NCBI GenBank assembly: GCA_965224415.1
Contig: CBDCZB010000004.1
Location: 801,660-865,659, forward strand
DNA length: 64,000 nucleotides
Direction of reading: 5' to 3'
Origin: Dehalococcoidia bacterium
Lineage (GTDB): Bacteria; Chloroflexota; Dehalococcoidia; Lucifugimonadales; JAGWBF01
Positions 983 to 60,259 of the stretch are shown in pieces. The position numbers and the translations under genes are program-made. A model generated the notes under the pieces. That model was not told the origin of the DNA. It did not search any database and saw only the letters and a list, made by a program, of their open reading frames with translations. Position 1 is the stretch's first letter. Every line of letters starts with the position of its first letter.

Positions 983-2809
983 ATGGTCAGCCAAAGTTCC
1001 AACAAAAGCAACCCCATCGACGTTATGGAGGCCGACCACGCGGGCCGGAAACCGGCCCAGTCCAGCCGTCCCGTAGTATTGGGTTCTCAGGGAGTCGTCT
1101 CTTCCGGACATTGCCTTACGTCCATGTCCGCCGCCCGAATGCTCCTGAGCGGCGGCAACGCATTCGACGCCGCCGTGGCCGCCGGGTTTGCGGCTGCCGT
1201 CGTGGAACCCGCGGCGTCTTATACGCTGTGCTCCGAGGGAACTTTCATGGTCTACCATGCGGCCACGGGACGAGTGAGGGCGCTAAGCGGCCAAGGCGTC
1301 GCACCCGGGAAGGCCAATATAGACCTATTCGAAAGCAAGGGGCTGGACAAGATTCCCACCGGCCCCGGCCCCAACGCAGAACTGTCTTTCACCATCCCTG
1401 GAATCGTAGATGCCTTGCTGCTGATGCTTGAAACCTACGGCACGAAAACGCTGTCAGAGACCCTGGAGCCCGCCCTCGAGTACGCCCAGCGGGGCATGCC
1501 AATGTACGAACGACTCCGCGAAAGTCTCATGTCAACCGCGACCCTGGACCAGTTCCGCCTCTATCCGCCAGGCGGGCTGGACGTTTTCTACCAGGACGGA
1601 GATGCGCCCGCTGTGGGACAACCATTACGTCAGCCTCAGCTTGCGGCCACTCTCCAGGCGCTCATAGAGGCGGAACGAGCGGCGTCAGGCTCCAGGACCG
1701 ACGGAATCGCAGCGGCCAGGGAAGCCTTCTACAAGGGCCCGATATCAGAGACCATCGTCCAGTGCGCCCAGCGCGTCGGGGGACTCTTCAGCGCCGAGGA
1801 CATGGCGTCATACCAAGCCGGCTTTGATGAACCCCTCAAGACCGACTTTATGGGATTCGAGGTGTTTGGCCAGCCCACGTGGACGCAGGGAGCCGTGCTG
1901 CTCCAGGCCCTGAACATCCTGGAGGGCTTCGACCTGAAGTCCATGGGCCACAACTCCGCCGACTACATCCACACAGTCACCGAGGCGTTAAAGCTTGCTT
2001 TCGCCGATAGGGAAAAATTCTACGGCGATCCGAAGTTCTCAACCGTTCCCATAGACGGGCTGCTGTCCAAAGAATACGCCAAGGCCCGCGCCGCTCTAAT
2101 AGACGGCGCCATCGCAATGCCGGAGATGCCCGAGCCGGGAGACCCGTGGAGGTTCTCCGCCCTTTCCAGCAACGGGGCAAGCCGCCCCGTCGCGATTCCT
2201 GCCGGTGGAACGGCGTCCAAAGACGACGAACAAGGAACAACCCACTTTGCCGTCATCGATAGGGACGGCAACATGGTGGCGGCGACACCCAGCGGCGGAG
2301 TCTGGGGCAAGTCGGTGTACTTCCCGGAAATCGGCTGCGCCCTTAGCACAAGAAGCGAGATGTTCGTCCTGGAACGAGGCCATCCCAACGGCCTGGAAGG
2401 CAGGAAACGGCCCCGCACGACCCTGGTCAACTACCTCGTGGCCAAGAACGGAGTCCCTTTTCTAACCGCGGGATGCCCTGGAGGCGACGCCCAGGCCCAG
2501 GCAAACCTGCAACTTATTCTGAACTCCCTGGTGTTCGGCATGGACCCACAGGAGGCCGTGGAAGCGCCGCGTTTTGCGACTCAGACGCTGATTAACTCCT
2601 TCTACCCCAGAGTGTACCTGCCCGGACAACTCAACGTGGAGAAGGGCACGCCTGCCGACGTGCGGACCGAACTAGAGAAGCGGGGACATAAAGTCACCGA
2701 GGTGAACGCGTCGGGCACCGGGGCCATCGTGACTCGTAGGGACCCCGAATCCGGCGGGATGGCCGCCGGCGCCGACCCCCGACGGGACACCTATGCCATA
2801 GGATGGTAA
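983..2809 (+). CDS. ggt: Gamma-glutamyltransferase family protein
   Basis: 608-aa ORF containing the autoprocessing/nucleophile region EQGTTHFAVIDRDGNMVAATPSGG and a C-terminal GADPRRD motif typical of GGT. Confidence 0.85.
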   Translation: MVSQSSNKSNPIDVMEADHAGRKPAQSSRPVVLGSQGVVSSGHCLTSMSAARMLLSGGNAFDAAVAAGFAAAVVEPAASYTLCSEGTFMVYHAATGRVRALSGQGVAPGKANIDLFESKGLDKIPTGPGPNAELSFTIPGIVDALLLMLETYGTKTLSETLEPALEYAQRGMPMYERLRESLMSTATLDQFRLYPPGGLDVFYQDGDAPAVGQPLRQPQLAATLQALIEAERAASGSRTDGIAAAREAFYKGPISETIVQCAQRVGGLFSAEDMASYQAGFDEPLKTDFMGFEVFGQPTWTQGAVLLQALNILEGFDLKSMGHNSADYIHTVTEALKLAFADREKFYGDPKFSTVPIDGLLSKEYAKARAALIDGAIAMPEMPEPGDPWRFSALSSNGASRPVAIPAGGTASKDDEQGTTHFAVIDRDGNMVAATPSGGVWGKSVYFPEIGCALSTRSEMFVLERGHPNGLEGRKRPRTTLVNYLVAKNGVPFLTAGCPGGDAQAQANLQLILNSLVFGMDPQEAVEAPRFATQTLINSFYPRVYLPGQLNVEKGTPADVRTELEKRGHKVTEVNASGTGAIVTRRDPESGGMAAGADPRRDTYAIGW

Positions 2810-7592: not shown

Positions 7593-8765
7593 TCACTGGG
7601 CCCGCCCCACGCCGGGGAAGGCGGGCATAACCTCTTTGGAGATGCGGGCCGCCTGCTCGTGGAACTGCTCCATCGTGGTCCCCATGGGACAGGCTATCAT
7701 TATCTGGTCCAGCCCCGGGTACTTGTCCTCCACTTCCTTGAGATAGGCGATAGTGTCCTCGGGGCTGCCACAGAACCAGGCCCGGGTCTTCAGAACATCT
7801 TCAAAGTCGCTGCTTGCGGCAATATGGCGGGCGGCCCCAGAGGGACCCACGGCTTCCATCTGTTCGTCGCTGTACCGGAGCATTCCCAGGGGCGCCGCGA
7901 ACTTCACGTGTTCCTCGAACAGAGGCCTCAGCCGGTCCTTTGCTCTCTCGTAGCTGTCGTCCACCTGGCACCATATTCCCAGCGCCAGGCCCTCACCCAG
8001 ATCGGTCTCCCGCCCATACTTGGCGTTGGCCTTCTGGTACTCGTGAATCCATCCGTCCACGTGGTCTATGGCAGTGCCGGCAATTATCCCCTTGATGCCG
8101 TGCTTGGCCATGAAATCCAAACCTCTGGGAGACCCGCTGACCACCGGCTGCCACATTTCCACTGGAGTGTTGATGGGCCTGGGCACCAGGGTAAGCTCCT
8201 TTAGCTGGTAGCCCCTGTAAGGAACCTCCGGAGGCAGCGTGTAGTTCTTTCCCTGGTGGGAAAAGGAGTCGTTGTTGAAAGCGGTCAATATCACTTCCAG
8301 CTGCTCTTCGAACAGGTCCCGGTTGGCGTCGGCGTCCAGCATGGGTGCGCCGAAGGTCTCCACCTCCCGGGTGTGGTAGCCGCGGCCCACGCCGAATATT
8401 ACCCTGCCATCGGTAAGCACGTCGGCCATGGCGAAGTCCTCGGCCAGGCGGATGGGGTGCCACATGGGAAGGATGTTGAACGCGCAACCCAACTTTATCT
8501 TAGTGGTGTGTTGAGCCAGCCAGACGTTGAGCATCAGCAGGTTGGGAATGCACTCGTACCCCTCCCGCTGGAAGTGGTGCTCGGCCATCCACAGAACGTC
8601 GTAGCCCAGCTCCTCAGTGACCTGGGCCGTCCTCTTCGCCATGTCGAAGACCTGAATAAGCCGCTCGTTGGAATAGCGGCGGTCGTTGGCCGGAGTGCCG
8701 TCTAAGCCGACGTTGTCCCCTTCCAGCACATGGCCTGCATATAGAGTAGAGAATGACTTAATCAT
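7593..8765 (-). CDS. LLM-class (luciferase-like) flavin-dependent oxidoreductase
   Basis: 390-aa ORF with a GGGAGG RBS. Motifs LWMAEHHFQREGYECIPN and GRVIFGVGRGYH are typical of the luciferase-like monooxygenase family. Confidence 0.85.
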   Translation of the reverse strand: MIKSFSTLYAGHVLEGDNVGLDGTPANDRRYSNERLIQVFDMAKRTAQVTEELGYDVLWMAEHHFQREGYECIPNLLMLNVWLAQHTTKIKLGCAFNILPMWHPIRLAEDFAMADVLTDGRVIFGVGRGYHTREVETFGAPMLDADANRDLFEEQLEVILTAFNNDSFSHQGKNYTLPPEVPYRGYQLKELTLVPRPINTPVEMWQPVVSGSPRGLDFMAKHGIKGIIAGTAIDHVDGWIHEYQKANAKYGRETDLGEGLALGIWCQVDDSYERAKDRLRPLFEEHVKFAAPLGMLRYSDEQMEAVGPSGAARHIAASSDFEDVLKTRAWFCGSPEDTIAYLKEVEDKYPGLDQIMIACPMGTTMEQFHEQAARISKEVMPAFPGVGRAQ

Positions 8766-8795: not shown

Positions 8796-9590
8796 TTATT
8801 GGTCTTTGTACGCCGTAACTCTGAGACGGCGGTAGTCGGCGGTCCAAAGGCCGTCATGGAACATCACCGGCCTGAGCCGAGATTCGACCTCTGAAACCAC
8901 CCGCTCCCGTAACTCGTCAGGCAGATGCACCAGAAGCTCGGCCCCAAACATGGACATCCAGTGGCGCATCCCATTGGGCCCGTCTTCCAACGGAGTGGGG
9001 CGGTCGAAAAGGGCCGCATAGCCCGTGACTATGCATCTCTCCTCCAGCCGCGACGTGAAGTCGGCAACGCTGGGGAAGTACCAGGGCAGGCCCTGTCCGG
9101 GGCGGGCATGCCCCACCGCGTCCAGGGCCTGGTCCACCGCTCTGATGATGGCAGCGATGTTCCCCTTGCCGCCCAACTCCACCACCAGGCGTCCCCCAGG
9201 CTTCAGGACGTCGCCCAGGGTGGCCATGACTCCGTGCGTGTCCTTCACCCAGTGGATGGCGGCGTTGGAGAAGACGGCGTCGAAGGGCTCACTGCACGTG
9301 AAACGGGCGGCGTCGGCCACCACAAACTCCACGTCTGGATAGGCGACTCTTGCCCGCTCTATCATGGAAGGGTCGATGTCCACGCCGACCGCCTGGGCGC
9401 CTGCCTTGGAGATCTCGTTGGCCAACCGCCCAGTGCCGCATCCCAGGTCCAGGATGCGCTCGCCGGGCTGCGGGGCCAACATCTCCACCAACTCCAGCCC
9501 ATACTCCGAAACGAAAGCGTGCTTGGAGTCGTAGAGGTCGGCGTCCCATGCGCCGACAGTGGTCTGGGTTGGGTTGGACTGGTCGTTCAT
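8796..9590 (-). CDS. Class I SAM-dependent methyltransferase
   Basis: Motif I ILDLGCGTGRL and a post-I acidic residue (GVDIDPSM). Resembles the trans-aconitate/UbiE-like small-molecule MTase layout. Confidence 0.8.
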   Translation of the reverse strand: MNDQSNPTQTTVGAWDADLYDSKHAFVSEYGLELVEMLAPQPGERILDLGCGTGRLANEISKAGAQAVGVDIDPSMIERARVAYPDVEFVVADAARFTCSEPFDAVFSNAAIHWVKDTHGVMATLGDVLKPGGRLVVELGGKGNIAAIIRAVDQALDAVGHARPGQGLPWYFPSVADFTSRLEERCIVTGYAALFDRPTPLEDGPNGMRHWMSMFGAELLVHLPDELRERVVSEVESRLRPVMFHDGLWTADYRRLRVTAYKDQ

Positions 9591-9603: not shown

Positions 9604-10365
9604 CTATATCAGCTCTTCCGGGGTGGATATACCCTCGAAGTCCGCAGCAGACGCGGGCTTTTCCGGCTTGATCTTCAGGTCCGTCTCCATGATGTGGTAA
9701 ACCTGCTTAAGGTGATGGGTGGAGTGCCGGAGGATTATGTGAAGCAGTTCCAGCACAGTCACCTCGCCCCCGTAGTGGGCGGGGACCACCCACTCGAATC
9801 CTGCCGTGTTCCCGCTCTTCAGGAACCCCGTCACGTTTTCGCTCACCTCGCAGCCGTATTCAGAGATTTGCTTTGGGGATTTGATTTGCGAGGTCTTTTC
9901 GTGGGAAGCCTCCATGTCTTCTTTGCTCATGCTACCATGCTCGTGGGCCCGCCACGCCAGCTCCGGGAAGGAGATGATATGCAACAGGAGCTCCCGGAGT
10001 GTCCTGGGCCGCCACGCGGGAGCTTCGTCCAACTCGACGGGCATGAGCTGCCCCGCGGTCCTGGAGGCGGCGCCCAGAATGGCTTCGTACTTCTCGGCCA
10101 GCCACTGGGCGGACGAAGACAGGTCCACAACGGTTTCAAGCTCCAAGACCTCTACGAGCTTCTTGGGGTAGTAGCCGATGACCACCTTTTCGTCGTCGAC
10201 GATGGTGACCGGAAGGGCCTTTATGCCGCGGCCCTTGAGGAATTCCCTGGACGCCTCGTCGTTGAGCACGTCATGGTTCTGGAATTCCACGCCGTTGGAA
10301 GTGAGGAACGCTTCCAGCGTCCGGCAGCTGAATCAGCCAGGTTGGGTGAACACTTGAACGTTCAT
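9604..10365 (-). CDS. Candidate selenoprotein: glutaredoxin-like (UxxC) domain fused to a DinB/YfiT-like domain. In-frame TGA at 10335..10333 read as Sec
   Basis: The frame is open from ATG 10365 (AAGGGGG SD-like 7-8 nt upstream) to the stop at 9604 except for one TGA. Translation is MNVQVFTQPG-U-FSCRTLEAFLTSNGVEFQNHDVL...ALPVTIVDDEKVVIGY, a complete Grx/NrdH-like fold with U at CxxC position 1. The C-terminal half is His-rich and DinB-like (HIISFPELAWRAHEHG, LRHSTHHLKQVYH). The ORF track starts only at GTG 10290. Confidence 0.65.
10305..10322 (-). promoter_or_regulatory. Candidate bacterial SECIS-like hairpin downstream of the in-frame UGA
   Basis: mRNA GGACGC-UGGAA-GCG(U)UCC: a 6-bp stem with one bulged U and a G-containing 5-nt loop, beginning 10 nt after the UGA. 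It is short, so only suggestive. Confidence 0.4.
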
Positions 10366-10450
10366 AGCGACCCCCTTGAGGCCATATATTTCGGATTATG
10401 TACGCACGGAATCAGGGTGTCAACGGGCCGTTCCAACCAACCCTGCGGAC

Positions 10451-11269
10451 TAGGGTCTGTTCACACTAACGCAACGCATCGACTATAAGAGTGAGTAGGA
10501 TGAAGCCTAGGAAGAGCACATCCAGCTTCTCGAAGCGAGAGAAGATACGGCGAAAGCCCTTCAATCGCCGGAACAAGCGCTCAACTTCGTTGCGTCTCTT
10601 GTACATCTCCATGTCGTACGTCCATGGGGAGACCCGTGTCGAGGACGGCGGAACGACGGGAGTGAATCCCAGCGCCAATGCGAGTTGGCGTGTCTCGTTG
10701 CCCTCGTATGCACGATCCATCACTATAGACAAGTTCTCTCGCTGTGGCCCAAGACGGTTGAGCAGCTTGCGTCCTTCAGGCGCGTCGTGGGCTTGTCCGG
10801 CGGAGAGGGAGAACATCAGAGCCGTTCGAGCATCTGCGGCAACCATATGAATCTTGGTGGTCCATCCTCCCCGGGACTTGCCGATGGACTGCGGTCCGTT
10901 TTTTTTAACGCGCCCGTGCCATCGGGATGCACCTTGACAATCGTGCTGTCCACCGAAACCGCCTCGATATTGATGCGCACTATCTGCTCTCGTTGAAGGT
11001 GTTCGAACACCCGATTGAGGACTCCGTTTTTGGACCAGCGGTTCATGCGGGTATAGACTGTGTGCCAGGAGCCAAACCTCGGAGGCAAGCCCCGCCACTT
11101 GCAACCATGCTCGGCGACGTACAGAATTGCGTTGAGGACTTGGAGGTTCGACATGCTCACGTTGCCGCGTTGCACCGGCAGACAAGGAGCTATTCGTTCG
11201 TATTGAGCTTCTGTAAGTTCCATCCTCCAATGATATCATATTCAACCCAATAGTGTGAACAGGCCCTAG
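10451..11269 (-). mobile_element. IS5-family insertion sequence (IS427/IS1031-like group)
   Basis: Terminal inverted repeats GGGTCTGTTCACACTA (10453..) and TAGTGTGAACAGGCCC (..11266), embedded in CTAG at both ends. About 0.82 kb with a two-ORF transposase. Confidence 0.85.
10466..11223 (-). CDS. IS5-family transposase OrfAB (programmed -1 frameshift)
   Basis: OrfA (10816..11223, MELTEAQYERI...HGCKWRGLP) and OrfB (DDE part, GGWTTKIHMVAAD...MDRAYEGNE...YKRRNEVERLF) join by a -1 shift on the A8 run (T-run 10899..10906 on the plus strand): ...GALKK|NGPQSIGKSRGGW. Confidence 0.85.
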
Positions 11270-11296
11270 CTCATCACTAACGGAGGAAGGGCTCCT

Positions 11297-11367
11297 CTGG
11301 ATTCCGGCCTGCGCCGGAAAGACGGGGGATACCCCCCTCTCCCCTGGGAGAGGGCTGGGGTGAGGGC
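11297..11367. repeat. GC-rich palindromic intergenic element (REP-like), copy A
   Basis: Two hairpins, TTCCGGC-ctgc-GCCGGAA and CCCTCTCCC-ctg-GGAGAGGG, followed by CTGGGGTGAGGG. Related sequence occurs at 24402..24438 and 26965..27100. Confidence 0.6.
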
Positions 11368-12470
11368 TACGTTATCTCGAAACTCGTCCCTAATTCATCT
11401 ATATGAAGAACGTCGGTGTTAAATGGATATCGATTCTGTATTTGGATCTCGCCATGTTTCGGCATCATATTAGGTGCCTGGATTCTCCAGAAACAACGTC
11501 CAAATAATTTATTCCTGTGTGGGTACGGTCCATTCGTGGCCTCATCAACAACCAAGCCATTCCTTCCCAAGCCAAAATCGAACTTGGCGACGAGAAACGG
11601 CTCTGTAGTTTTGTAAATTGGCTCGTATGTTCCACCTAATTCAGGATTCCACGGGTTCCAGGAAAGTTGAGAGTTTGCAACCAACGTTTTGCCTTCCTGT
11701 CGCCATTCTTTGTCGTACCACCTAACTTGACGGTTCCCCTTGAGACCGAATGGGCTTGAAGGTTCCTGATCCTTGGGAAACCAGAACAATTCAATTAACG
11801 CTGATTCCTCCACCGAATTCGAAGTATTCTGGATTCCCATATAAATGGGTGCAACTAGAGATCCAATGTCTAGACCCGAATAGGTCGTTTCCCACCGGTC
11901 ATTGAGCCCGACCACCAACTTCAAATCTGGTCCTACGTTGCGGTTCCTGGCTAGATTGATTTCGTAATGTTCCATCGGCTCAGCCTTATAGTTGAACCGT
12001 TTATAGTACCTCTTGTCTCTCCCTTGCCAGACATCTCCAATCCCAACTGCTACCTCAACAACAAATACAACCCGGCCATCGTAGGGAACTTCCGAAACTC
12101 GAAACAGGTCGGGGCCAGGCCTTGGTTGGATGTTGCTTGTAATCAGGTTTTCTACGGTTTCTTTGTCGATTTCTCCTCGCTGAAACCCAACATCAGGACC
12201 GCCTGGAATCGGGGCGCCACCGGTCATGTTTGGATCGGTGGTTTCAGGCACACCATACACCAACACCCCCCCGTCAGAGTTCAGGAACGATGACACGTCC
12301 TTGCTTATGTCCTCCGCCCTTTTCTGTTTGTCAACGCCACCGCCGCTCCTGCGGTTAGGCAGTAGGCTCGCCTTATCTTTATAATCGAGATAGAGGTCTT
12401 CGGGCCTCTGCTCCTCAAGCATGCGCTTGAGTTCAGCATTCCACCAATCAGCGTTATGAAACTCCGCCAT
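11367..12470 (-). CDS. Schlafen/AlbA_2-like domain protein with unrecognised C-terminal domain
   Basis: GGAGGTG RBS before ATG 12470. N-terminus LYLDYKDKASL...AEDISKDVSSFLNSDGGVLVYGVPE matches the AlbA_2 (Schlafen-type) signature (E/D-x-L-E/D-F/Y-K ... A-F-x-N-x-x-GG-x-l-x-x-GV). The C-terminal ~230 aa are unknown. Confidence 0.55.
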   Translation of the reverse strand: MAEFHNADWWNAELKRMLEEQRPEDLYLDYKDKASLLPNRRSGGGVDKQKRAEDISKDVSSFLNSDGGVLVYGVPETTDPNMTGGAPIPGGPDVGFQRGEIDKETVENLITSNIQPRPGPDLFRVSEVPYDGRVVFVVEVAVGIGDVWQGRDKRYYKRFNYKAEPMEHYEINLARNRNVGPDLKLVVGLNDRWETTYSGLDIGSLVAPIYMGIQNTSNSVEESALIELFWFPKDQEPSSPFGLKGNRQVRWYDKEWRQEGKTLVANSQLSWNPWNPELGGTYEPIYKTTEPFLVAKFDFGLGRNGLVVDEATNGPYPHRNKLFGRCFWRIQAPNMMPKHGEIQIQNRYPFNTDVLHIDELGTSFEIT

Positions 12471-12770
12471 CCCATCACCTCCAATCCACCATACACGCGG
12501 TTGCAAACAACGTTACCCTTAGCGCTAACACAAATTGGGGTTCTTTGTCCATCTGATGTTGTCACAACCCCAATATCGATAACCCGGAGAGCAGCTTTGC
12601 ATCCAAGGATAGCTTGACACACATATTTTCCGGACTGGCGAACAGGTTCCGGAGCATGAATTGACAAGTGGAGTCCGGACGTTTACGGTTACATCAATGC
12701 TCCCCGTCGTCCACTTGTCGTAATGGCAGGTTGATTGGCGGGGTTGTTATTTTGTCACTGATTACGAACT

Positions 12771-13388
12771 GTGCCTATGGACACTTCTCTGAGACTCGTA
12801 TTGTTCATAGACGCACAAAACACCTACAGAGGCGCCAGGGGTAGGTTCTTCCGTAACCAGGGGCCTGCAACCGACGGACAATTCGATCCAGTTAAACTCG
12901 GCAAGTTCATAGAGTCGCGAGGCGGCCCGAACCAGAGTGTATGTCATCTGACAGGCGTAAGAGCGTACACAGGACGCCCGGATCCGGAAAAAGACCCTAC
13001 AACATACGCCGCCCACATGAAGCAATGCGCCAAATGGGAAACGGACGGAGCGATTGTAGTGCACAGGCAACTCAGGTATCCACCGGGCTGGCCTGACGAA
13101 AGAGCACAAGAAAAGGGGATAGACGTTGCCTTGGCTATTGACTTCGTATCTATGGCAGTGGATGGCGGCTACGACATAGGCGTAATAATGTCAACGGACA
13201 CTGATTTGTTGCCTGCGCTCGAGTTCACGCTTAATCGATATGCGGAAGTTCGCCATGTGGCAGTCGCGGCGTGGAGCGGTTCTCATATGCCCCGGCGACT
13301 GTCTATACCCGGTTCGAACATCTGGTGCCACTGGCTCGATCAGGACGACTACGACGCCGTTGCCGACCCAACCAACTACAATCGTTAA
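12771..13388 (+). CDS. NYN (LabA-like PIN-fold) nuclease domain protein
   Basis: LVLFIDAQNTYRGA at the N-terminus and GIDVALAIDFVSMAVDGGYDIGVIMSTDTDLLPALEF are the conserved acidic motifs of NYN/LabA domains. The start may be GTG 12771 or ATG 12777. Confidence 0.7.
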   Translation: MPMDTSLRLVLFIDAQNTYRGARGRFFRNQGPATDGQFDPVKLGKFIESRGGPNQSVCHLTGVRAYTGRPDPEKDPTTYAAHMKQCAKWETDGAIVVHRQLRYPPGWPDERAQEKGIDVALAIDFVSMAVDGGYDIGVIMSTDTDLLPALEFTLNRYAEVRHVAVAAWSGSHMPRRLSIPGSNIWCHWLDQDDYDAVADPTNYNR

Positions 13389-13414
13389 GGTCGGACGGAG
13401 GCTGACACCCCCGG

Positions 13415-32327: not shown

Positions 32328-32423
32328 TGGCGGGAGTGGGAGGGAGTCGAACCCACCTACCCCGTGCTAACGAGGCACAACGGATTTGAAGTCCGCAAGA
32401 GCCACCGGGCCCCATCCACTCCC
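32328..32423 (-). tRNA. selC: tRNA-Sec (selenocysteine tRNA, anticodon TCA)
   Basis: 96 nt, folded by hand. 8-bp acceptor GGGAGUGG/CCACUCCC plus G plus CCA. 6-bp D-stem (GGGGCC/GGCUCU) with a 4-nt loop. Anticodon loop CUUCAAA. Long variable arm (GUGC...GCAC). T-loop UUCGACU. The 8-bp acceptor and 6-bp D-stem are the bacterial tRNA-Sec hallmarks. Confidence 0.9.
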
Positions 32424-32782: not shown

Positions 32783-32958
32783 CTATGTCTCCTTCGTAGG
32801 TGGACGTTCCTTTGGAACGCTGACGCCGTACTCACCTCAAGGTGGATTGGGTACAAGGTCAAGTGTATACGCCCCCCTTGTTTGGGTCAACCTACCGGGG
32901 TCCCGCTGCCTTGGCGCTTTCGCACGGTTGGGTTTATAGTGAGCGCCGGAGCAAGCCC

Positions 32959-34788
32959 ATGACCAAGACCAACCGCATAGGCCAACGGCTCACCGTAGAC
33001 CTGATACGCTGGGGCGATTCGGGAGATACGATAGCCCACTTAGACGGCGAGGATCTCCACGTCCTAGGAGGAATCCCAGGAGAGGAAGCTGTCGTCGAAA
33101 TTATCCGAGACCGGAAAGGGAGGGTTGCAGCCCAGGTGATGCAGACCCTAACTGAGTCCCCTGACCGGAGACTTCCGCCTTGTCCCTACTTCGGCCCTTG
33201 CACCGGGTGCCAGTGGCAGCACGTCGAGTACCGTCGCCAGCTAGAGATTAAGCGAGAAGCGGTGATAGCGGCCCTCGCCCAGGTCGGTCTGCCGGAAGCT
33301 CCGGTCGCGCCCACATTGGCCTCGCCGGAGGAGTTCGACTACCGGAACCACGCCCGTTTCACCGTCGGGCGAAAGTGGGGAGAGCTTGGTTTTGTCAACC
33401 GTGAGAGCAGGCGATTTATTCCGGTAACAAGCTGCATGTTGATGCAGCCTTGGATCAACCAAACGCTGGCCCACCTGCAGCGCAAGGCTGCCGAGACCTC
33501 TCAACTGTCCATCAGGTACGGGATGGAGTCGGGCGACTACCTGATACAGCCCCGGCTGAAGAACCCGGACATCGAGGTTGAATCGGGCCAGCCGCACTAC
33601 ACCGACATCATAGAGGGCCGCAGATTCCGGGTCGCAGCCTCTTCATTCTTCCAGGTGAACCCCAAGCAGGCGGAAGCTCTTGCCCGTCTTGTGAGAGACG
33701 GCCTGCGGCTCACCGGACAAGAGACGGTGGTGGACGCCTACGCTGGCGTCGCCGCCTTTGCCGTACTTGTGGCTGACCGCTGCCGCAGAGTCATCGCCAT
33801 CGAGGAATCGGCGTCGGCCATTAAAGACGCCGAGAGCAATATCGGAGGAGTGGACAACATAGAGTTGGTCCAAGCCAAGACGGAGGATGTCCTCGGCGGG
33901 ATGTCTCACCCGCCGGACGGCGTGGTCCTGGACCCGCCAAGGGCCGGCTGCCATCCCAGGGTACTGGATGCCCTCACTGACCTCAAACCCCGCCGTATTG
34001 TCTACGTTTCTTGCGAACCCGCCACGTTGAGCAGAGACTTGGCGGCTCTGTGCCAAGGGCCTTTCCAGCTGGAGTCAGTCCAGCCCGTGGATATGTTCCC
34101 CCAGACCCACCACGTGGAATGTGTGGCCGTGCTGGCCCTCCGAGACTCGGCGCCACAACCCAACGAGCCGGCCGTGAACCTTGTCCCCGTCCTCGCATCC
34201 ACGTCCCCACGCCGCAGGGAGCTTATGAGGCGAATGGGGAAAGCTTTTGACGTTGCGTGTCCCTCCGTCAACGAGGACGCTCTGCCCGGGGAGTCACCGT
34301 CTCACTTAGTGGAGCGGCTGGCTCTGGCAAAGGCCCGAAGCGTTCACGGCGACCAGTGCGACAGAGTCGTAATCGGGGCCGACAGTGTGGTGGTTCTGGA
34401 CGACCGGATTCTTGGCAAACCCGGAAGTTCGGACGACGCCCGCTCCATGCTGACGGCGTTGAGGGGCCGGGATCACGAGGTTTACACCGGAGTGGCCGTC
34501 GTAGGGCCAAATGGTGAAGCGGTTTCCAGCAAACGCAGCCGAGTCGTGATGCGGGAATACTCCGATGCGGAGATGGAGGCCTACGTCCTCTCAGGAGAGC
34601 CGATGGACAAGGCGGGCGGCTATGCCATACAAGACCAACACTTCCGCCCAGCTTCTCTTTTGGAAGGCTGTTACAATAACGTCATGGGGCTGCCCACCTG
34701 CCTGCTGGCGGACATGCTGGTCAAAGCGGGGTTGCCGCCTCACACGGTGGAGCGTCCGCCGGAATGCGCAAATTGCCCGGTAGAGTGA
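32959..34788 (+). CDS. Fusion protein: RlmD/RumA-family (uracil-5-)-RNA methyltransferase + Maf nucleoside-triphosphate pyrophosphatase
   Basis: The N-terminal ~430 aa carry a TRAM-like start, the Fe-S Cys cluster CPYFGPCTGCQWQH, SAM motif VVDAYAGVAAF and the catalytic region YVSCEP. There is no stop before the Maf module LASTSPRRRELM...GADSVVVLDDRILGKP...DKAGGYAIQD...NVMGLP. I checked codon by codon across the junction (34141..34260). Confidence 0.7.
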   Translation: MTKTNRIGQRLTVDLIRWGDSGDTIAHLDGEDLHVLGGIPGEEAVVEIIRDRKGRVAAQVMQTLTESPDRRLPPCPYFGPCTGCQWQHVEYRRQLEIKREAVIAALAQVGLPEAPVAPTLASPEEFDYRNHARFTVGRKWGELGFVNRESRRFIPVTSCMLMQPWINQTLAHLQRKAAETSQLSIRYGMESGDYLIQPRLKNPDIEVESGQPHYTDIIEGRRFRVAASSFFQVNPKQAEALARLVRDGLRLTGQETVVDAYAGVAAFAVLVADRCRRVIAIEESASAIKDAESNIGGVDNIELVQAKTEDVLGGMSHPPDGVVLDPPRAGCHPRVLDALTDLKPRRIVYVSCEPATLSRDLAALCQGPFQLESVQPVDMFPQTHHVECVAVLALRDSAPQPNEPAVNLVPVLASTSPRRRELMRRMGKAFDVACPSVNEDALPGESPSHLVERLALAKARSVHGDQCDRVVIGADSVVVLDDRILGKPGSSDDARSMLTALRGRDHEVYTGVAVVGPNGEAVSSKRSRVVMREYSDAEMEAYVLSGEPMDKAGGYAIQDQHFRPASLLEGCYNNVMGLPTCLLADMLVKAGLPPHTVERPPECANCPVE

Positions 34789-34792
34789 TGCA

Positions 34793-35065
34793 TTGAACTT
34801 TTTCGGAATGGGGCCCTTCGAGCTTCTGGTGGTCATGGCCGTTGCCCTGGTGGTGCTGGGGCCAGGGAAGACCATCGGAATGGCCCGAACCGTAGGCAAA
34901 GTGTTCGGGGAGGTGCGTCGCGCATTCACCGACCTTTCCAGAATGGCCGAGGAAGAGGAACGGAACATAAACCAAGAGCCCCCTTCTAACCGTCAGACCG
35001 GCGCCGAAGACGGCGCACCCGCCAGACAAGCCGCCAAGGACTCGGAGGCTGAGGAGGAGCGTTGA
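34793..35065 (+). CDS. Twin-arginine translocase TatA/TatB-family protein
   Basis: FGMGPFELLVVMAVALVVLGPGK TM-hinge motif followed by an amphipathic helix and an acidic tail. 4-nt overlap with tatC. TTG start (or ATG 34808). Confidence 0.8.
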   Translation: MNFFGMGPFELLVVMAVALVVLGPGKTIGMARTVGKVFGEVRRAFTDLSRMAEEEERNINQEPPSNRQTGAEDGAPARQAAKDSEAEEER

Positions 35066-35817
35066 GGGACCAAGAACAGTCCCTGACTGCGCACTTTCGA
35101 GACCTCCGCAAAAGGGTCCTCATATCCGGTGCAACGGTGGTGATTACTACCATCGTGGCCTTCAGTTTTCACCAGCAGATAATCGAGGCGCTGCTGGAGC
35201 CGGTGGGGTTGGAAGCTGCCACGGGAGGCGAGGCCGGCCTGATCTCTACGGAGTTGACCGAGACGTTGGGCGTCACTCTCAAGGTGTCCTTCGTGGCGGG
35301 CCTGGTGGGCGCCTTCCCGATGGTGCTGTACCAGATAATCCTGTTCGTCGCCCCTGGTTTGACGCCCAGGGAACGCCGGTACCTGTTCTCCTTCATTCCT
35401 GGGGCCGCGCTTGCCTTTGCGGGAGGCGCAGTCTTCGCGTACTACGTGCTGATTCCCCGGGCTATCGATTTTCTCATCGGATGGGGAACAGACCTGGCCA
35501 CACCGCAGATCCGCATATCCAACTCGGTGAGCATCGTAGTGAGGCTGCTGTTCTGGATGGGCGTAGTGTTCGAGACGCCCTTCGTGATGTTCCTGCTGGC
35601 AAAGCTTGGAATAGTCTCGGCCAAAGGTTTCGCCAGATGGCGGCGCCATTGGATTGTCGTGGCGTTCATCATAGGCGCCTTCATCACGCCCACCATCGAT
35701 CCCATCAGCCAGTCTCTGGTGGCGGCGCCCTTAATTCTCCTCTACGAGGGGGGCATCCTTCTGGCCAAGTTTGCAGCCAGGGGCCGCGAGCCTGCCCCGG
35801 AACCCGCGGGATCATAA
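35062..35817 (+). CDS. tatC: Twin-arginine translocase subunit TatC
   Basis: 251 aa and six predicted TM segments. LTAHFRDLRKRV N-terminus and a PGL..RE motif (VAPGLTPRERRY) are typical of TatC. Confidence 0.9.
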   Translation: MRDQEQSLTAHFRDLRKRVLISGATVVITTIVAFSFHQQIIEALLEPVGLEAATGGEAGLISTELTETLGVTLKVSFVAGLVGAFPMVLYQIILFVAPGLTPRERRYLFSFIPGAALAFAGGAVFAYYVLIPRAIDFLIGWGTDLATPQIRISNSVSIVVRLLFWMGVVFETPFVMFLLAKLGIVSAKGFARWRRHWIVVAFIIGAFITPTIDPISQSLVAAPLILLYEGGILLAKFAARGREPAPEPAGS

Positions 35818-35856: not shown

Positions 35857-36741
35857 TCACCAGTTTCTTAGGATGTGGTCCGCTATGTCTATAGCGATAG
35901 GAGCCCCTCGTTGATTACTGGCGGCAAAAAACAGCTCGAACATTGGGGAGTTTTTGGAGTTTGTAAACGCCCGACTGGTAGGAGCGATTTCAACGAACAC
36001 GGATTTCAGTCGGTCTCGATATAGACCGGCTATCTGCTCGACGCCAGACCGTCTTTCTTGCCTAGGTTCCTCGTCGAAGAAAGACAGCTGTGGAGAAGGG
36101 CTATACATGGTTTCCCAGTATTGACGGCCTCCGAAGATCCTGTCTAATCGGCTTGCTAATTGTGGAGATGGCTCACTACCTCTGGGCATCATCCGGGAAA
36201 TAGCCATTAACGGGAACAATATCCAGCAATCAACCCTTTCAGTCCAAGCCAGCGTTTCCATGGTTTCCCAGGAAACCTCAGTCGCAAACGGGTCCAAGAA
36301 CACAACTGCACAATCTAGAGCATGTAACTCGCCACAGAACTCAACCAACGCCGGATTGGCGTCTTCGTTTCTCACGGAGATGTCTCGCTTCGGATATTCC
36401 GTCCTCAACTGCTCCAGTGAATCTGAGCGACCTCGGTCCTTTTCGACGAATACGAGTTGGTCGAAGGGTTTGTCGTGTATTCCTAAAGCGATTCTTGGCG
36501 ACCCGTTATGCAACTCTCGGAAGTCATCATAGTCGTCGTATCCGTACCCTGAAGGCAGATGGAATGACCCTTCTCCAGCAAATGCATCAACGTAAATCAA
36601 ACGAAACTGAGTGTTCTTCAACGCAGTGGTGTAGGCGTCCAGATATCGCCTGAGTATTTCCAATTTTTCCAGCGTCCATTGTCCGCCGAAAGACATTTGG
36701 GCCACGGAACTTATTAAACTCCGACCGGCATTTGGCGCCAT
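35857..36741 (-). CDS. Three-Cys-motif partner protein TcmP-like (RsmD-like methyltransferase fold suspected)
   Basis: GGQWTLEKLEILRRYLDAYTTAL...LIYVDAFAGEGSF...FVEKD...VVFLDPFA. Matches my recollection of the TcmP family that pairs with Gp37/Gp68 proteins. 28-nt overlap with the upstream DUF5131 gene. Confidence 0.65.
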   Translation of the reverse strand: MAPNAGRSLISSVAQMSFGGQWTLEKLEILRRYLDAYTTALKNTQFRLIYVDAFAGEGSFHLPSGYGYDDYDDFRELHNGSPRIALGIHDKPFDQLVFVEKDRGRSDSLEQLRTEYPKRDISVRNEDANPALVEFCGELHALDCAVVFLDPFATEVSWETMETLAWTERVDCWILFPLMAISRMMPRGSEPSPQLASRLDRIFGGRQYWETMYSPSPQLSFFDEEPRQERRSGVEQIAGLYRDRLKSVFVEIAPTSRAFTNSKNSPMFELFFAASNQRGAPIAIDIADHILRNW

Positions 36742-54498: not shown

Positions 54499-54705
54499 TT
54501 GGCGTTAGACTGGCAGTGCCGCCTAGAGTCCGGTGGAGCTGCCTCGAGAGCGGAACTCGCCCGCCAGATGGGAGTCACAAGGGCCCACGTCACCCAGGTA
54601 CTGAGCCTGCTTCAACTTGCGCCTGAAGCCAAAAAGATGATCCTGAACCTAGGTGACCCCATCACAAAGAGGAAGTTAGGCATTCGTACCTTGCGGTCTT
54701 TATAG
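54499..54705 (+). CDS. Small HTH protein / fragment (ParB-like DNA-binding helix-turn-helix)
   Basis: SRAELARQMGVTRAHVTQVLSLLQLAPEAKKMIL is an HTH of the kind seen in ParB-like/MerR-like accessory proteins of mobile elements. Non-ATG start, possibly truncated. Confidence 0.4.
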   Translation: MALDWQCRLESGGAASRAELARQMGVTRAHVTQVLSLLQLAPEAKKMILNLGDPITKRKLGIRTLRSL

Positions 54706-56293
54706 AGCCTTCTGAAGGAAGAACAATTAGTATGGATACAAGCGTACAAAGCAGAAGCGGTTTAAATGATCGGGTCGAATCCTCCACGGTGGACATTTTC
54801 GCTGTACAACAACACAGGTCACTAGCAGCCCGTCCGAGGATTATCTGACGGCGCTTGCGGGTCAGCGACAATGGATCGCGACAACTAATTTTGCCGGTTG
54901 CCCCGGCCGGCCCCCAGATAGGTTTGCGAATAGCGCCGTGCTCAACTACCTCGGCAAAGTTCCTGATGCGTTGGGCTGGCCCATCGACCCGTGCTTTCCT
55001 GTGCAGATTGACCCCAGAGCGGAACAGTTTGAGCAGGTTGTGGCCGGTGCAGATCAGCGACCATTCGCCGTTCACCTTCTCCAGTCCCCGCAGCAGGAAC
55101 TGCCGGAATCCCCGGCCCTGCTTGATCTGGCCGAATGCCGGCTCCACAGTTTGCATCCGCAAAGCGTAGCGCTGCCGCCCCCGCTTGGTCTGTAACTTCC
55201 GTCGCATCCGGTCCCTGGGAGACAGATGGCTGGGTATGCGACCTCGGGGCTCGGGCGGCACAACCCGGCCGTGGCGGGTCTGCTCCGGCGCGACGAACGG
55301 GTCCACACCCAGAGCATAGAGCTCGGCGACTGCCTTTGCCGAGTAGTAGCCAGCATCGGCGGATACTTCCCTGGGGACTGCACCGACGTTGTCGATGGTC
55401 TCCTCCATCATCGCCGCAGCCTGTTGCTTATCCGAAGTCTGGTTGGTGGCCCGCGCCGCCACGATCACCTGGTGAGCGCTGTCCACCACCGCCTGACAGT
55501 TGTACGCTTGCAGGAAGTCCTTTCCTCCAGGTGCGGGGATGATGCGCGACTCGGCATCGGTGAAGTTGCGCTGGGCCTTGTCGTCGGGCGCCCCCGGGCG
55601 CTTACCGCCTTCGGCCTCGGCCTGTTCGCCAGCCGCCTGCGCCTCGGCTTCCAGCGCCGCCATGGCTTCCCGTATATTCTCCAACCGACCCTCTCGAAAG
55701 GCCAACTCCTGAGGCAACTCATCTCCACGCTTGTCTTTGCCGTACCGCCGGTCTTCCTCATCATCCGCTGCCTGGGCCTGTCGCAACAACTGCGCTGCCT
55801 TCTCCTTCATCCGTTGGCAACTCATCGCCTTATGCTTCGATGCGTTGGCCTTGACCTTCGTGCCGTCCAGCGCCACGTGCCCCAGCTTCACCAGTCCCGA
55901 CTGCTGGCACAACGCCAGTACCTGTACGAACAGGCCCGACAGCGCATCCAGATTATCCTTGCGAAAGTCGGAGATGGTCCGGAAGTCCGGTGTGTTGTTC
56001 GCCGCCAACACCCTGAAGGCGATGTCCTCGTGGAGACGCTGGGCGATGCGGCGTGAGGACGCCACCCCCACGCAGTAGCCGTAGAGCAACACCTTGACCA
56101 TCATCCGTGGATGATACGGCGGCCCGCCACGCCGTTCCCGCTCGTAGCGAGCGGTGACCTTCGACATGTCCAACTGGTCCACCACGTCGGATATGAAGTA
56201 GGCCAGATGGTCGTCAGGCAGCCACTCCTGCAACGCCGCTCGCAACAGCAACTGCTGGTCGGGTTCGTAGGGAAGGTAGGTTTTGCTCATCAA
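54662..56293 (-). CDS. IS1182-family transposase
   Basis: MSKTYLPYEPDQQLLL...WLPDDHLAYFISDVVDQLD N-terminus, a coiled-coil middle and a C-terminal DDE part ending ...CTGHNLLKL. The ORF has no stop inside the IS and reads ~160 nt past the left IR. Confidence 0.8.
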   Translation of the reverse strand: MMSKTYLPYEPDQQLLLRAALQEWLPDDHLAYFISDVVDQLDMSKVTARYERERRGGPPYHPRMMVKVLLYGYCVGVASSRRIAQRLHEDIAFRVLAANNTPDFRTISDFRKDNLDALSGLFVQVLALCQQSGLVKLGHVALDGTKVKANASKHKAMSCQRMKEKAAQLLRQAQAADDEEDRRYGKDKRGDELPQELAFREGRLENIREAMAALEAEAQAAGEQAEAEGGKRPGAPDDKAQRNFTDAESRIIPAPGGKDFLQAYNCQAVVDSAHQVIVAARATNQTSDKQQAAAMMEETIDNVGAVPREVSADAGYYSAKAVAELYALGVDPFVAPEQTRHGRVVPPEPRGRIPSHLSPRDRMRRKLQTKRGRQRYALRMQTVEPAFGQIKQGRGFRQFLLRGLEKVNGEWSLICTGHNLLKLFRSGVNLHRKARVDGPAQRIRNFAEVVEHGAIRKPIWGPAGATGKISCRDPLSLTRKRRQIILGRAASDLCCCTAKMSTVEDSTRSFKPLLLCTLVSILIVLPSEGSIKTARYECLTSSL

Positions 56294-60248: not shown

Positions 60249-60259
60249 GCTACTGGGGA
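60185..60259 (-). tRNA. tRNA-Asn (anticodon GTT)
   Basis: Reverse complement TCCCCAGTAGCTCAGTGGTAGAGC..., anticodon loop CTGTTAA, T-arm GTAGG-TTCGAAT-CCTAC, acceptor TCCCCAG/CTGGGGA plus G plus CCA. Confidence 0.9.

Follow-up and report, generated by a model that had tools for sequence, protein, structure and literature searches.

The window, meaning the whole stretch of 64,000 nt that was analysed, carries on its minus strand a reading frame of 253 codons followed by a TAG stop (9604..10365), the full predicted selenoprotein CDS, whose product would run MNVQVFTQPG-U-FSCRT...TPEELI. Between the ATG at 10365-10363 and the TAG at 9606-9604, the sole internal stop is a TGA at 10335-10333, codon 11 of the frame. 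The first-pass annotation had described the frame as open up to this ATG with one TGA interruption. The 253-codon minus-strand reading confirms this, as well as the U-containing translation MNVQVFTQPG-U-FSC, in which the TGA takes the first position of a UxxC motif.

The start called by the mechanical ORF finder is a GTG further inside the gene (10288..10290, minus strand). It had been noted earlier that the redox motif is lost with this start. The false start yields a truncated product of 228 aa, and P0001 and P0002 (228 aa), the nearest entries in the databases, begin at the same GTG 10290. The upstream ATG (10363..10365), 10 codons 5' of the TGA, is kept in 76/78 distinct homologous sequences, and at almost every one of the 80 genome loci, tblastn aligned the query over residues 1-253. 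A Shine-Dalgarno-like AAGGGGG is visible by direct reading of the sequence (10371..10377, minus strand); the element itself had been pointed out before, with a spacing of 7-8 nt to the ATG that has to be corrected to 5 nt. On the same strand, 5' of the ATG, TTGACA-17-CATAAT (10395..10423) agrees with a sigma-70 promoter at 11/12 positions. As a consensus match only, it is a putative promoter from which transcription may start upstream of the ATG.

Glutaredoxin-like head, DinB-like bundle and C-terminal tail

The first 75 residues (10141..10365, minus strand) are predicted to form a glutaredoxin/NrdH-like domain of the thioredoxin fold. In the domain searches, for which the TGA was read as Cys, the Pfam Glutaredoxin profile (PF00462) matched residues 3-59 with its positions 1-58 of 60, at 38 bits for a cut-off of 22.9. 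Such a domain should carry its CxxC-type site behind strand beta-1 and a cis-proline ahead of strand beta-3; the window protein has U11-F-S-C14 and the cis-proline P52 (10210-10212, minus strand). The resolving cysteine of U-F-S-C, Cys14 (TGC, 10324..10326, minus strand), is kept in every homologue for which the redox motif was read, and P52 occurs without exception in the 45 Sec and Cys forms compared. It aligns with the A-V-P-V of the clostridial selenoprotein cGrx1.

Classical glutaredoxins are recognized by a glutathione-binding signature, composed of CPYC, TVP and GG-x-dD. At the corresponding sites, the window protein has the UFSC motif, and I-G-Y-Y-P-K-K in place of GGxDD; the NCBIfam Grx3 models give only about 20 bits on the N-terminal domain. 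The segment after the last strand, I-G-Y-Y-P-K-K-L, presumably resembles the W-S-G-F-R-P motif of NrdH. The NrdH/YruB redoxins (TIGR02194, TIGR02196) are also the best NCBIfam matches of this domain, and folds of this type (4hs1, 1h75 and BC3987, 3zit) were matched by Foldseek. Unlike these redoxins, the window domain lacks CVQC, is fused instead of stand-alone and has Sec instead of Cys. None of three NCBIfam equivalog models reached its cut-off: YruB scored 54.1 vs. 88.55 bits, NrdH 44.4 vs. 85.75 and Uxx_star 32.9 vs. 66.

A structure was modelled for P0003, a full-length homologue of 58% identity with a W at the Sec position (AlphaFold2, pLDDT 83, pTM 0.75); TM-scores normalized to the target are given below as TMt. 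Among solved structures, cGrx1 of Clostridium oremlandii (7c10/7c12) comes closest to residues 1-75, with a profile E-value of 1.3e-9 and, by Foldseek, 40% identity and a TMt of 0.90 to the P0003 model. This glutaredoxin is a native selenoprotein of the same fold with a U/C-P-x-C site, solved as its Sec-to-Cys form (PMC7642778). Unlike the window protein, whose motif is U-F-S-C and in which a 170-residue DinB domain and a tail are added, cGrx1 stands alone (84 residues in the solved chain), has a U-P-x-C motif and is proposed to reduce MsrA.

The C-terminal half had been described as a DinB/YfiT-like bundle, and this is borne out by both profile and fold matches. The helical bundle covers residues about 83-228 (9682..10119, minus strand). 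Pfam DinB_2 (PF12867) recognizes residues 106-222 with 30.9 bits (cut-off 24.8), while Pfam DinB (PF05163) stays just below its cut-off (22.7 vs. 23). The sequence match of this domain to solved proteins is weak. Foldseek, run with the P0003 model, retrieved for the DinB part 6iz2 (DR0053, TMt 0.81), 2p1a, 3dka, 1rxq (YfiT) and 8f5v (Mtb MST); identity to the DinB/YfiT structures is only 12-18%, so that the likeness is one of fold.

Three histidines in the bundle follow an H...HxxxH pattern: H129 (9979-9981), H214 (9724-9726) and H218 (9712-9714), all on the minus strand. No exception to H129 or H218 occurs among the 45 Sec and Cys forms, and at least 90% of them have H214. This conservation argues for a putative metal site. 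Judged by motif pattern, the triad would be equivalent to the metal ligands of YfiT. Both the bundle fold and H...HxxxH are common to the window protein and to DR0053 and the DinB/YfiT S-transferases (YfiT, S. aureus BstA and mycobacterial Mst). YfiT/BstA and Mst are DinB-family thiol S-transferases, which activate a thiol nucleophile for conjugation (PMC4360819). Those enzymes are single-domain proteins working with free bacillithiol, mycothiol or glutathione; here, on the contrary, a predicted Sec redoxin is covalently attached.

The protein ends in a conserved tail (residues 229-253; 9607..9681, minus strand) with the motif D-x-E-G-I-x-T-P. Within the Sec clade, its residues D242, G245, I246, T248 and P249 never vary, and P249 is conserved in at least 90% of the superfamily. 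In the P0003 model, the tail region is of low confidence.

Many GSTs also appear in the Foldseek list, over 230-265 aligned columns. Their fold arrangement is not the same, since the TM-scores are 0.23-0.37 and the rmsd about 11-16.5 Å. Membership in the GST superfamily was rejected on these low scores, on the lack of a Pfam GST match and on the C-terminal domain, which is of the DinB and not the GST type. With GSTs and proteins of the E. coli Grx2 type, the window protein shares an analogous logic only, a thioredoxin-fold head joined to a helical substrate domain.

The fusion had been thought unusual, but it is not rare: it belongs to a large family, some members of which have Sec and others Cys. 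Relatives number 203 in species-representative genomes, 947 protein clusters in a first search and at least 800 representatives in a profile search. The Cys-form Grx-DinB fusions (for example, P0194, P0184 and P0187) are uncharacterised proteins of 250-276 aa from marine and soil metagenomes, with at least 542 loci in the metagenome scan. They share the architecture, a CxxC aligned to UxxC, the cis-proline, the histidine triad and a C-terminal G-L-P-x-P tail. They differ from the window protein in having only 20-28% identity to it and Cys in place of Sec, with rare exceptions such as locus L161. NCBIfam contains no family for the Cys forms and no model that spans the fusion. A DinB domain is absent from a 2026 inventory of 119 selenoprotein families, and full-text searches of the literature for selenoprotein with DinB, or SAR202 with selenocysteine, returned nothing relevant.

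The in-frame TGA and its probable decoding

The TGA at codon 11 (10333..10335, minus strand) was compared in 81 sequences: the window and 80 species-level relatives, fetched from ocean and sponge Dehalococcoidia/SAR202-type genomes. All 81 have TGA at this codon, and the coding sequence is conserved on either side in 80/80 of the related genomes. Over the nine codons 5' of the TGA, the minority bases at positions 1/2/3 number 76/11/288. This mostly third-position pattern, together with the retention of the ATG, indicates that the upstream codons behave as coding sequence. The first-pass annotation had named homologues consistently starting at GTG 10290 as evidence against its reading; instead, in 80/80 genomes, conservation extends over residues 1-10 and across the TGA. 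It had also suggested a search for Cys at the aligned column. This was found in distant full-length homologues of the same two-domain architecture, which read PGC(S/T)SC, and in about 70/80 metagenome loci. Within the window's own clade, no Cys variant at codon 11 occurs among the 80 species examined. Three members of more remote family branches have TGA here too.

The database entries seen are either truncated or carry a Trp at codon 11, and the few that are named are called 'DinB family protein' or similar. Their truncation at this point is what would be expected if the TGA were an ordinary stop, the real product being a 228-residue DinB protein from GTG 10290 (codon 17 in homologues), preceded by a leader or by non-coding sequence. 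TGA is indeed a terminator in the window, closing 6 of 25 other family-supported genes; hence, it is a normal stop there under the standard code. No Rfam SECIS element is found, which would also fit. The short product, however, lacks strand beta-1 and the redox motif, yet the Pfam match begins at profile position 1. Nor does a true stop agree with the conservation of the ATG, the frame and the upstream 10 codons with their third-position pattern in all 80 genomes, with the Cys that replaces it in distant homologues, or with a stable hairpin that follows the codon in the TGA forms only. An ordinary stop is therefore very improbable. Least credible of all is that the UGA specifies an amino acid other than Sec (Trp or Gly, as under codes 4 and 25) or that the gene is a decaying pseudogene. 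Some gene callers do give W (P0003, P0005 and P0051), and in one metagenomic variant the codon is CGA (Arg). But the 6/25 genes ending at TGA speak for the standard code, the DNA underlying those full-length W entries is TGA with no table 11 translation leading to the query, the CGA contig is labelled 2x and has luciferase-like genes called in pieces, and over 80 species a pseudogene would not have kept its frame intact with a TGA at exactly one place.

A SECIS-like hairpin region lies at 10297..10322 (minus strand), nt 14-39 counted from the U of the UGA, and begins 10 nt past the codon. A hairpin at this distance had been predicted in a bulged-U form. The position holds, but ViennaRNA favours over the bulged form a 7-bp version without the bulge, GGACGCU-GGA-AGCGUUC (10306-10322), at -7.8 kcal/mol and z = -1.5, a single-sequence result that is not significant. 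In the window sequence, three small hairpins compete, the bulged one being among them (z from -0.1 to -1.5), and the fold is weak and ambiguous.

The picture is clearer at the level of the family. There, nt 14-18 pair with 35-39 and nt 21-24 with 28-31, and 93.7% of cells are paired in this form vs. 28-62% in slid controls. The pair 18:35 covaries (GC 33, UA 32), and the apical loops are GAG, GGA or GAGU across the family. In the window's lineage, this best-conserved hairpin contains a C.U mismatch. The median fold energy 3' of the codon is -10.65 kcal/mol in Sec forms vs. -3.8 kcal/mol in Cys forms, at equal G+C. RNAalifold returned no consensus structure from the codon-anchored alignment, since the upper stem changes register between lineages; explicit hairpin structures were tested in its place. 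Using the published definition of bacterial SECIS features (PMC1088965), the family shows a stem-loop directly 3' of the UGA with a small G-containing apical loop. The Rfam SECIS families gave no match, neither over the whole window at gathering thresholds nor in a permissive E-value scan of 10200-10420. This negative carries little weight, because Rfam evidently has no model for this element.

A tRNA-Sec with anticodon TCA is located 22 kb away (32328..32423, minus strand). It had been called from the sequence and is real, since both ARAGORN and the Rfam model RF01852 (71.2 bits for a cut-off of 47) detect it. The ORFs adjoining it encode a fatty-acid desaturase and an RlmD/Maf reading frame. 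A profile scan of about 35 suitably sized ORFs of the window detected no selA, selB or selD. Dehalococcoidia are among the bacteria richest in selenoproteins in BSepDB (PMC13326102). A scan of the window for further in-frame TGA genes of the UxxC/CxxU type gave no other convincing candidate; the TGA at 12759-12761, 5' of the ORF 12771-13388, was rejected, as that ORF has no family match.

The proposal of a mis-annotated selenoprotein fusion has so far come through every check suggested with it that could be run. Sequence comparison strongly supports the gene as a UxxC selenoprotein, in which a Grx/NrdH-like domain is joined to a DinB-like domain and whose annotation is wrong. Very probably, its product is a 253-residue selenoprotein, with the UGA at codon 11 decoded by the window's tRNA-Sec with the help of the hairpin 10 nt downstream.

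Possible activity and gene neighbourhood

For this selenoprotein, a mechanism can be tentatively proposed in which a tethered selenol works as a reductase or transferase together with the DinB metal site; it is a possibility, though not one to be relied on. The DinB metal site would bind and polarise a thiol-reactive substrate. Oxidative catabolism, which is typical of these Dehalococcoidia, could supply such a compound: an S-conjugate, a mixed disulfide or some electrophile. This would be attacked by the tethered selenolate of Sec11, after which Cys14 would resolve the adduct, leaving a selenenylsulfide. Either thioredoxin reductase/thioredoxin or a low-molecular-weight thiol might then return the UxxC pair to its reduced state. 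The built-in selenol would do what bacillithiol and mycothiol do for the DinB-family S-transferases, and by these steps, the enzyme would be a self-contained reductase or transferase. A function as self-contained selenol/thiol transferase, as suggested at the outset, is plausible by analogy with those enzymes.

The neighbouring genes could in principle indicate a substrate. In at least 39/80 loci, the next gene downstream, in the same orientation, encodes a GMC oxidoreductase of about 515 aa, which scores above the cut-off of the model for the mycofactocin dehydrogenase MftG. In the window's lineage, a methyltransferase follows and there is no GMC oxidoreductase; the Cys forms have no conserved neighbours. 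Some of the GMC adjacency may be incidental, because GMC paralogues recur in these loci, with two or three copies in several. Deriving a substrate from the neighbourhood was rejected, the adjacency being present in about half of the species and absent in the window.

Two other roles for the selenoprotein would each be improbable. In one, it is a chaperone or reductase for metals or metalloids (Hg, As, Cu or Se), which the selenolate, Cys14 and the histidine triad bind jointly, and it does not catalyse thiol transfer on organic compounds. The triad is the most conserved feature of the protein, metal-binding or organometallic proteins are numerous among the selenoproteins described of late (PMC13188914, Table 1), and residues 33-76 give weak Pfam and NCBIfam matches to the arsenic metallochaperone ArsD. 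Those matches, however, do not reach their cut-offs, and a thioredoxin fold common to both proteins can account for them. Moreover, no ars, mer or cop genes adjoin the gene in the window or occur among the annotated neighbour families of related loci, and the known DinB-fold enzymes use their metal catalytically (PMC4360819).

The second role, to which we would give no better chance, is that of a dedicated redox partner or regulator: the Grx module would serve a neighbouring enzyme such as the GMC flavoprotein, with the DinB part as a docking or sensor domain. The frequent GMC neighbour, with its MftG-level score, is what suggests it, but this adjacency is missing in the window's own lineage and in the Cys-form subfamily, and the recurrence of GMC paralogues weakens it further. 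The invariant histidine triad, in addition, suggests that the DinB domain itself has a metal or catalytic site.

Consequences for annotation and for selenium use

The mis-annotation is systematic: in the database entries seen, the catalytic N-terminus is missing or a spurious Trp is inserted. Correction adds a selenoprotein, and with it a selenium requirement, to the ocean and sponge Dehalococcoidia/SAR202-type bacteria. As an annotation model, the combination PG-U-FSC-RT + VPAHYGGE + HSTHHLKQ can be offered.

The predicted protein brings together a Sec redoxin and a DinB-type metal site, a combination of modules so far not known from any selenoprotein. This suggests the idea that a tethered selenol may replace the low-molecular-weight thiol cofactor of DinB-fold transferases. 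Extended to the Grx-DinB fusions as a group, the idea becomes rather doubtful: they would be cofactor-independent selenol transferases or reductases, in which the Sec-Cys redoxin replaces the diffusible thiol that characterised DinB-fold enzymes need, and Sec would be obligate in the SAR202-type clade, at a significant selenium demand. If true, an abundant lineage of the deep ocean, also associated with sponges, would have a selenium demand that is so far uncounted. The family, with its all-Sec clade, its mostly-Cys subfamilies and its sporadic Sec members, offers a natural experiment on the retention of Sec.

The reading frame and its internal TGA codon

The gene lies on the minus strand, in a frame of 253 codons running from ATG 10365-10363 to TAG 9606-9604. 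As described in the first-pass annotation, its sole internal stop is a TGA at codon 11 (10335-10333); read as U, it gives the N-terminus MNVQVFTQPG-U-FSC-RTLEAFL. The mechanical ORF list agrees with that annotation in starting at GTG 10290, which yields 228 aa. The Shine-Dalgarno-like AAGGGGG is present as well, at a spacing of 5 nt from ATG 10365 and not the 7-8 nt reported earlier. A sigma-70-like promoter match (TTGACA-17-CATAAT, 11/12; minus strand, 10423-10395) lies further upstream; the ATG and the TGA are therefore expected within the transcript, a consensus match alone being no proof of function.

Among 947 relatives from a protein search, the closest two (96% and 90% identical) are also 228 aa long and start at the same GTG, and most others (236-237 aa) start with 'MEEFLSSNG', just past the redox motif. 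Such short entries are expected if gene callers are halted by the TGA. Four entries are full-length, with W at the critical position in three and R in one. A W entry checked at the DNA level reads TGA, hence its tryptophan is a code-4 translation artefact. The R entry corresponds to a metagenomic variant with CGA in place of TGA (L081:3031-3033); as this contig is labelled 2x and its luciferase-like genes are called in fragments, the CGA is probably a sequencing error or belongs to a decaying copy.

Of 203 relatives found among GTDB representative genomes, one per species, the best 80 were examined. These are almost entirely Dehalococcoidia/SAR202/Chloroflexota MAGs, several from sponges, together with two 'Entotheonella' records. 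Residues 1-253 were aligned by tblastn in nearly all of these loci, and the TGA occupies the same codon in 80/80 and in the window, within the motif P-G-TGA-F-S-C-R-T. The codons upstream of the GTG are thus kept along with the TGA, in line with the proposed longer frame. Over the nine codons from ATG to TGA, the first, second and third codon positions carry 76, 11 and 288 minority bases (78 distinct sequences), and the ATG is retained in 76 of the 78: this stretch varies like coding sequence. A reassigned genetic code is ruled out, since TGA terminates 6 of the 25 family-supported genes in the window. The tRNA-Sec noticed earlier (32328-32423, minus strand) is recognized by both ARAGORN and Rfam (RF01852, 71.2 bits against a cut-off of 47).

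Cysteine counterparts are found further away. Searching 1.84 billion representatives with a profile yielded 800 relatives, and the distant full-length homologues (250-276 aa, 20-28% identical) carry Cys at the aligned column, e.g., 'WQPGCSSCLKTKEFL', the alignment that the first-pass annotation had suggested looking for; these supply the classical Sec/Cys pair. A metagenome scan seeded with the Cys forms gave more than 542 loci, and the best 80 have Cys in nearly all cases and TGA in one (L161:1869-1871, HPG-U-TSC), inside a mostly Cys subfamily. Two further, likewise distant representatives that had looked N-terminally truncated also contain the TGA, as 'RVG-TGA-FTC' (L083:1394-1396) and 'QPA-TGA-TSC' (L084:124-126). 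Many other representatives begin right after the redox motif; these may likewise be Sec forms that have gone unrecognised. Sec is thus used in several branches of the family, and no Cys form was found in the clade of the window. Altogether, the observation of an overlooked upstream frame is confirmed and its interpretation supported: decoding of the codon-11 UGA as Sec is considered highly probable.

The same TGA-containing gene, 57-59% identical, occurs in 'Candidatus Entotheonella' (L015, CAZZSM010000001.1; L078, NZ_FKIP01000310.1). In a family otherwise from Dehalococcoidia/Chloroflexota, these copies may have been exchanged horizontally among sponge symbionts or may be artefacts of binning.

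The hairpin downstream of the TGA

According to the literature, what bacterial SECIS elements have in common is a small hairpin that immediately follows the UGA and carries a G in its apical loop (PMC1088965). In an alignment of 55 nt from the TGA onward (72 distinct sequences), the family hairpin starts 10 nt past the TGA: nt 14-18 (GGAC[G/U]) pair with nt 35-39 ([C/A]GUCC), and an upper stem GGA(A/G)/UUCC (nt 21-24 with 28-31) encloses a loop that contains G. Paired cells amount to 93.7%; sliding the partner by 1-3 columns lowers this to 28-62%. Covariation is seen at pair 18:35 (G-C 33, U-A 32), the 3'-side change also switching the amino acid (Ser or Lys). The lower stem contains a C.U mismatch in the window and in loci L001-L004, and the window lineage favours a shorter hairpin, GGACGCU-GGA-AGCGUUC (-7.8 kcal/mol), which is not significant on the single sequence (z = -1.5). 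A hairpin exists where a SECIS had been proposed, its preferred fold being near but not identical to the bulged version drawn earlier.

From +9 to +42 (34 nt), the median folding energy is -10.65 kcal/mol after the Sec codon versus -3.8 after the aligned Cys codon in the Cys-form homologues, with matched G+C (0.53 vs. 0.54); a Mann-Whitney test gives a nominal p of 2e-20, a probability that is not exact for related sequences. No Rfam model matches the hairpin region. Since the upper stem changes register between lineages, RNAalifold run on the codon-anchored alignment gave no consensus structure.

Gene neighbourhood and window

A SAM-dependent methyltransferase gene (8796-9590) lies 13 nt past the selenoprotein stop, followed by a luciferase-like monooxygenase gene (7593-8765) and a tRNA cluster, an order common to the window and the four closest genomes. 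On the upstream side, an IS5-type transposase and a Schlafen/AlbA_2 gene take the place of other sequence in those genomes. Relative to L001-L004, the replaced or inserted segment covers 10430-13413, including the Schlafen/AlbA_2 gene (11367-12506). The IS4/IS5-type transposase, ~100 nt upstream of the promoter region, is read in two overlapping minus-strand frames (10466-11245 and 10816-11223; DUF4096 N-part, DDE_Tnp_1 C-part), a split probably due to programmed frameshifting.

In at least 39 of 80 other species, a GMC flavoprotein oxidoreductase of ~515 aa is encoded directly downstream on the same strand (L005-L080; e.g., L007:6855-8405), with SDR, luciferase-like monooxygenase, dienelactone hydrolase and P450 genes nearby. 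It scores 402.8 on the mycofactocin dehydrogenase MftG model (curated cut-off 387.45) and similarly on choline dehydrogenase models, below their cut-offs. The Cys-form loci have no conserved neighbours. This recurrent pairing would fit a dedicated partner of the GMC enzyme, a role that is considered improbable. The neighbouring genes point to an oxidative-catabolism and detoxification setting, with no substrate named.

Within the window, a gamma-glutamyltranspeptidase (983-2809, plus strand; Pfam E = 4.6e-119), ~7 kb from the selenoprotein gene, hints at glutathione or gamma-glutamyl metabolism in the organism. Between 20418 and 29553, paralogues of the luciferase-like monooxygenase, thiolase-like and acyl-CoA dehydrogenase types follow one another, three of them 395-aa ORFs (at 24459, 25781 and 27174); the run presumably resembles the expanded oxidative catabolic gene sets of SAR202-type Chloroflexota. 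The tRNA-Sec has no sel genes beside it: its neighbours are a fatty-acid desaturase on one side and, on the other, a 648-aa ORF (32842-34788, plus strand). In this ORF, residues ~244-431 correspond to an RlmD-type 23S rRNA U1939 methyltransferase and residues 450-631 to a Maf nucleotide pyrophosphatase; it is a fused gene or a pair of genes merged in the reading. TcmP, the three-Cys-motif partner protein (35857-36741, minus strand; TIGR04474, 177.8 bits), may form a pair with the adjoining minus-strand ORF 34993-35649, which has no family match. An IS1182-family transposase (54662-56293, minus strand) and a serine-recombinase-like ORF (59256-60248, plus strand), whose end overlaps tRNA-Asn (60185-60259, minus strand), suggest a mobile element integrated at a tRNA.

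Domain architecture, putative mechanism and novelty

With U read as C, Pfam Glutaredoxin (residues 3-59, from profile position 1) and DinB_2 (residues 106-222) both score above gathering, which bears out the glutaredoxin-like head and DinB-like body recognized earlier. NCBIfam gave only sub-threshold matches, to YruB-type, NrdH and Uxx-star redoxins, and has no model for the fusion in Sec or Cys form. A structure was modelled from a seven-sequence alignment for P0003, a full-length homologue (58% identical, W at the Sec site; mean pLDDT 83, pTM 0.75). Against the PDB, Foldseek matched its C-terminal part to the DinB/YfiT protein DR0053 (6iz2, TM-score normalised to target 0.81), and also to YjoA, YfiT (1rxq) and the Mycobacterium tuberculosis mycothiol S-transferase (8f5v). 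The N-terminal part matched cGrx1 of Clostridium oremlandii (7c10; 40% identity, TM-score 0.90 under the same normalisation), BC3987 and NrdH; cGrx1 also ranks first by sequence profile (E = 1.3e-9). Like the window protein, cGrx1 has Sec at the first position of its redox motif, as a native selenoprotein (PMC7642778).

Across 45 Sec and Cys forms (to ~20% identity), P52, H129 and H218 are invariant, and conservation is 90% or higher at H214, G47, G200, Q221 and P249. The Sec clade also has a conserved C-terminal tail, D-x-E-G-I-x-T-P. P52 is the thioredoxin-fold cis-Pro. H129 and H214-x3-H218 reproduce the H...HxxxH pattern of DinB/YfiT metal sites when tested for it, and these residues would be equivalent to the YfiT ligands. 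The DinB domain has no conserved Cys in the 45 forms, hence redox chemistry is confined to U11/C14.

The analysis thus shows recoding of the UGA and, across a large family, the covalent union of a UxxC redoxin fold with a DinB fold whose His triad is conserved. A tentative mechanism can be put forward: the DinB metal site would bind and polarise a thiol-reactive substrate, the tethered selenolate would attack it, Cys14 would resolve the adduct as a selenenylsulfide, and the U11/C14 pair would then be re-reduced. As the domain is NrdH/YruB-like, thioredoxin reductase is a candidate for this last step; the similarity to cGrx1 and the gamma-glutamyltranspeptidase make a glutathione-type reductant possible too. 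The DinB-family S-transferases YfiT, BstA and Mst use free bacillithiol or mycothiol (PMC4360819); the fusion would be their intramolecular counterpart, with a tethered selenol. That the His triad and selenol serve instead in a metal- or metalloid-handling unit is considered unlikely.

Sec glutaredoxins as such are established: 'Glutaredoxin (Grx), PF00462, UxxC' appears among the 119 selenoprotein families/subfamilies of a 2026 inventory, which has no DinB-domain entry (PMC13188914). Grx-DinB is not among the several selenoprotein fusions described in the GOS survey (PMC2398784), and no relevant paper came up in full-text searches combining selenoprotein with DinB. The names on the database entries examined ('DinB family protein', 'hypothetical protein', 'uncharacterized damage-inducible protein DinB/glutaredoxin') are all attached to truncated products, and homology pipelines may already count some members as 'Grx' or 'Grx-like'. 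The Sec-redoxin module itself is known. New are its attachment to a DinB-type metal domain and the fixation of Sec across a whole clade of such fusions. Specialists are well aware that gene callers overlook UxxC thioredoxin-fold selenoproteins, and the function proposed here is inferred; the selenoprotein itself is robust, widespread and systematically mis-annotated, with an unusual and testable domain logic.
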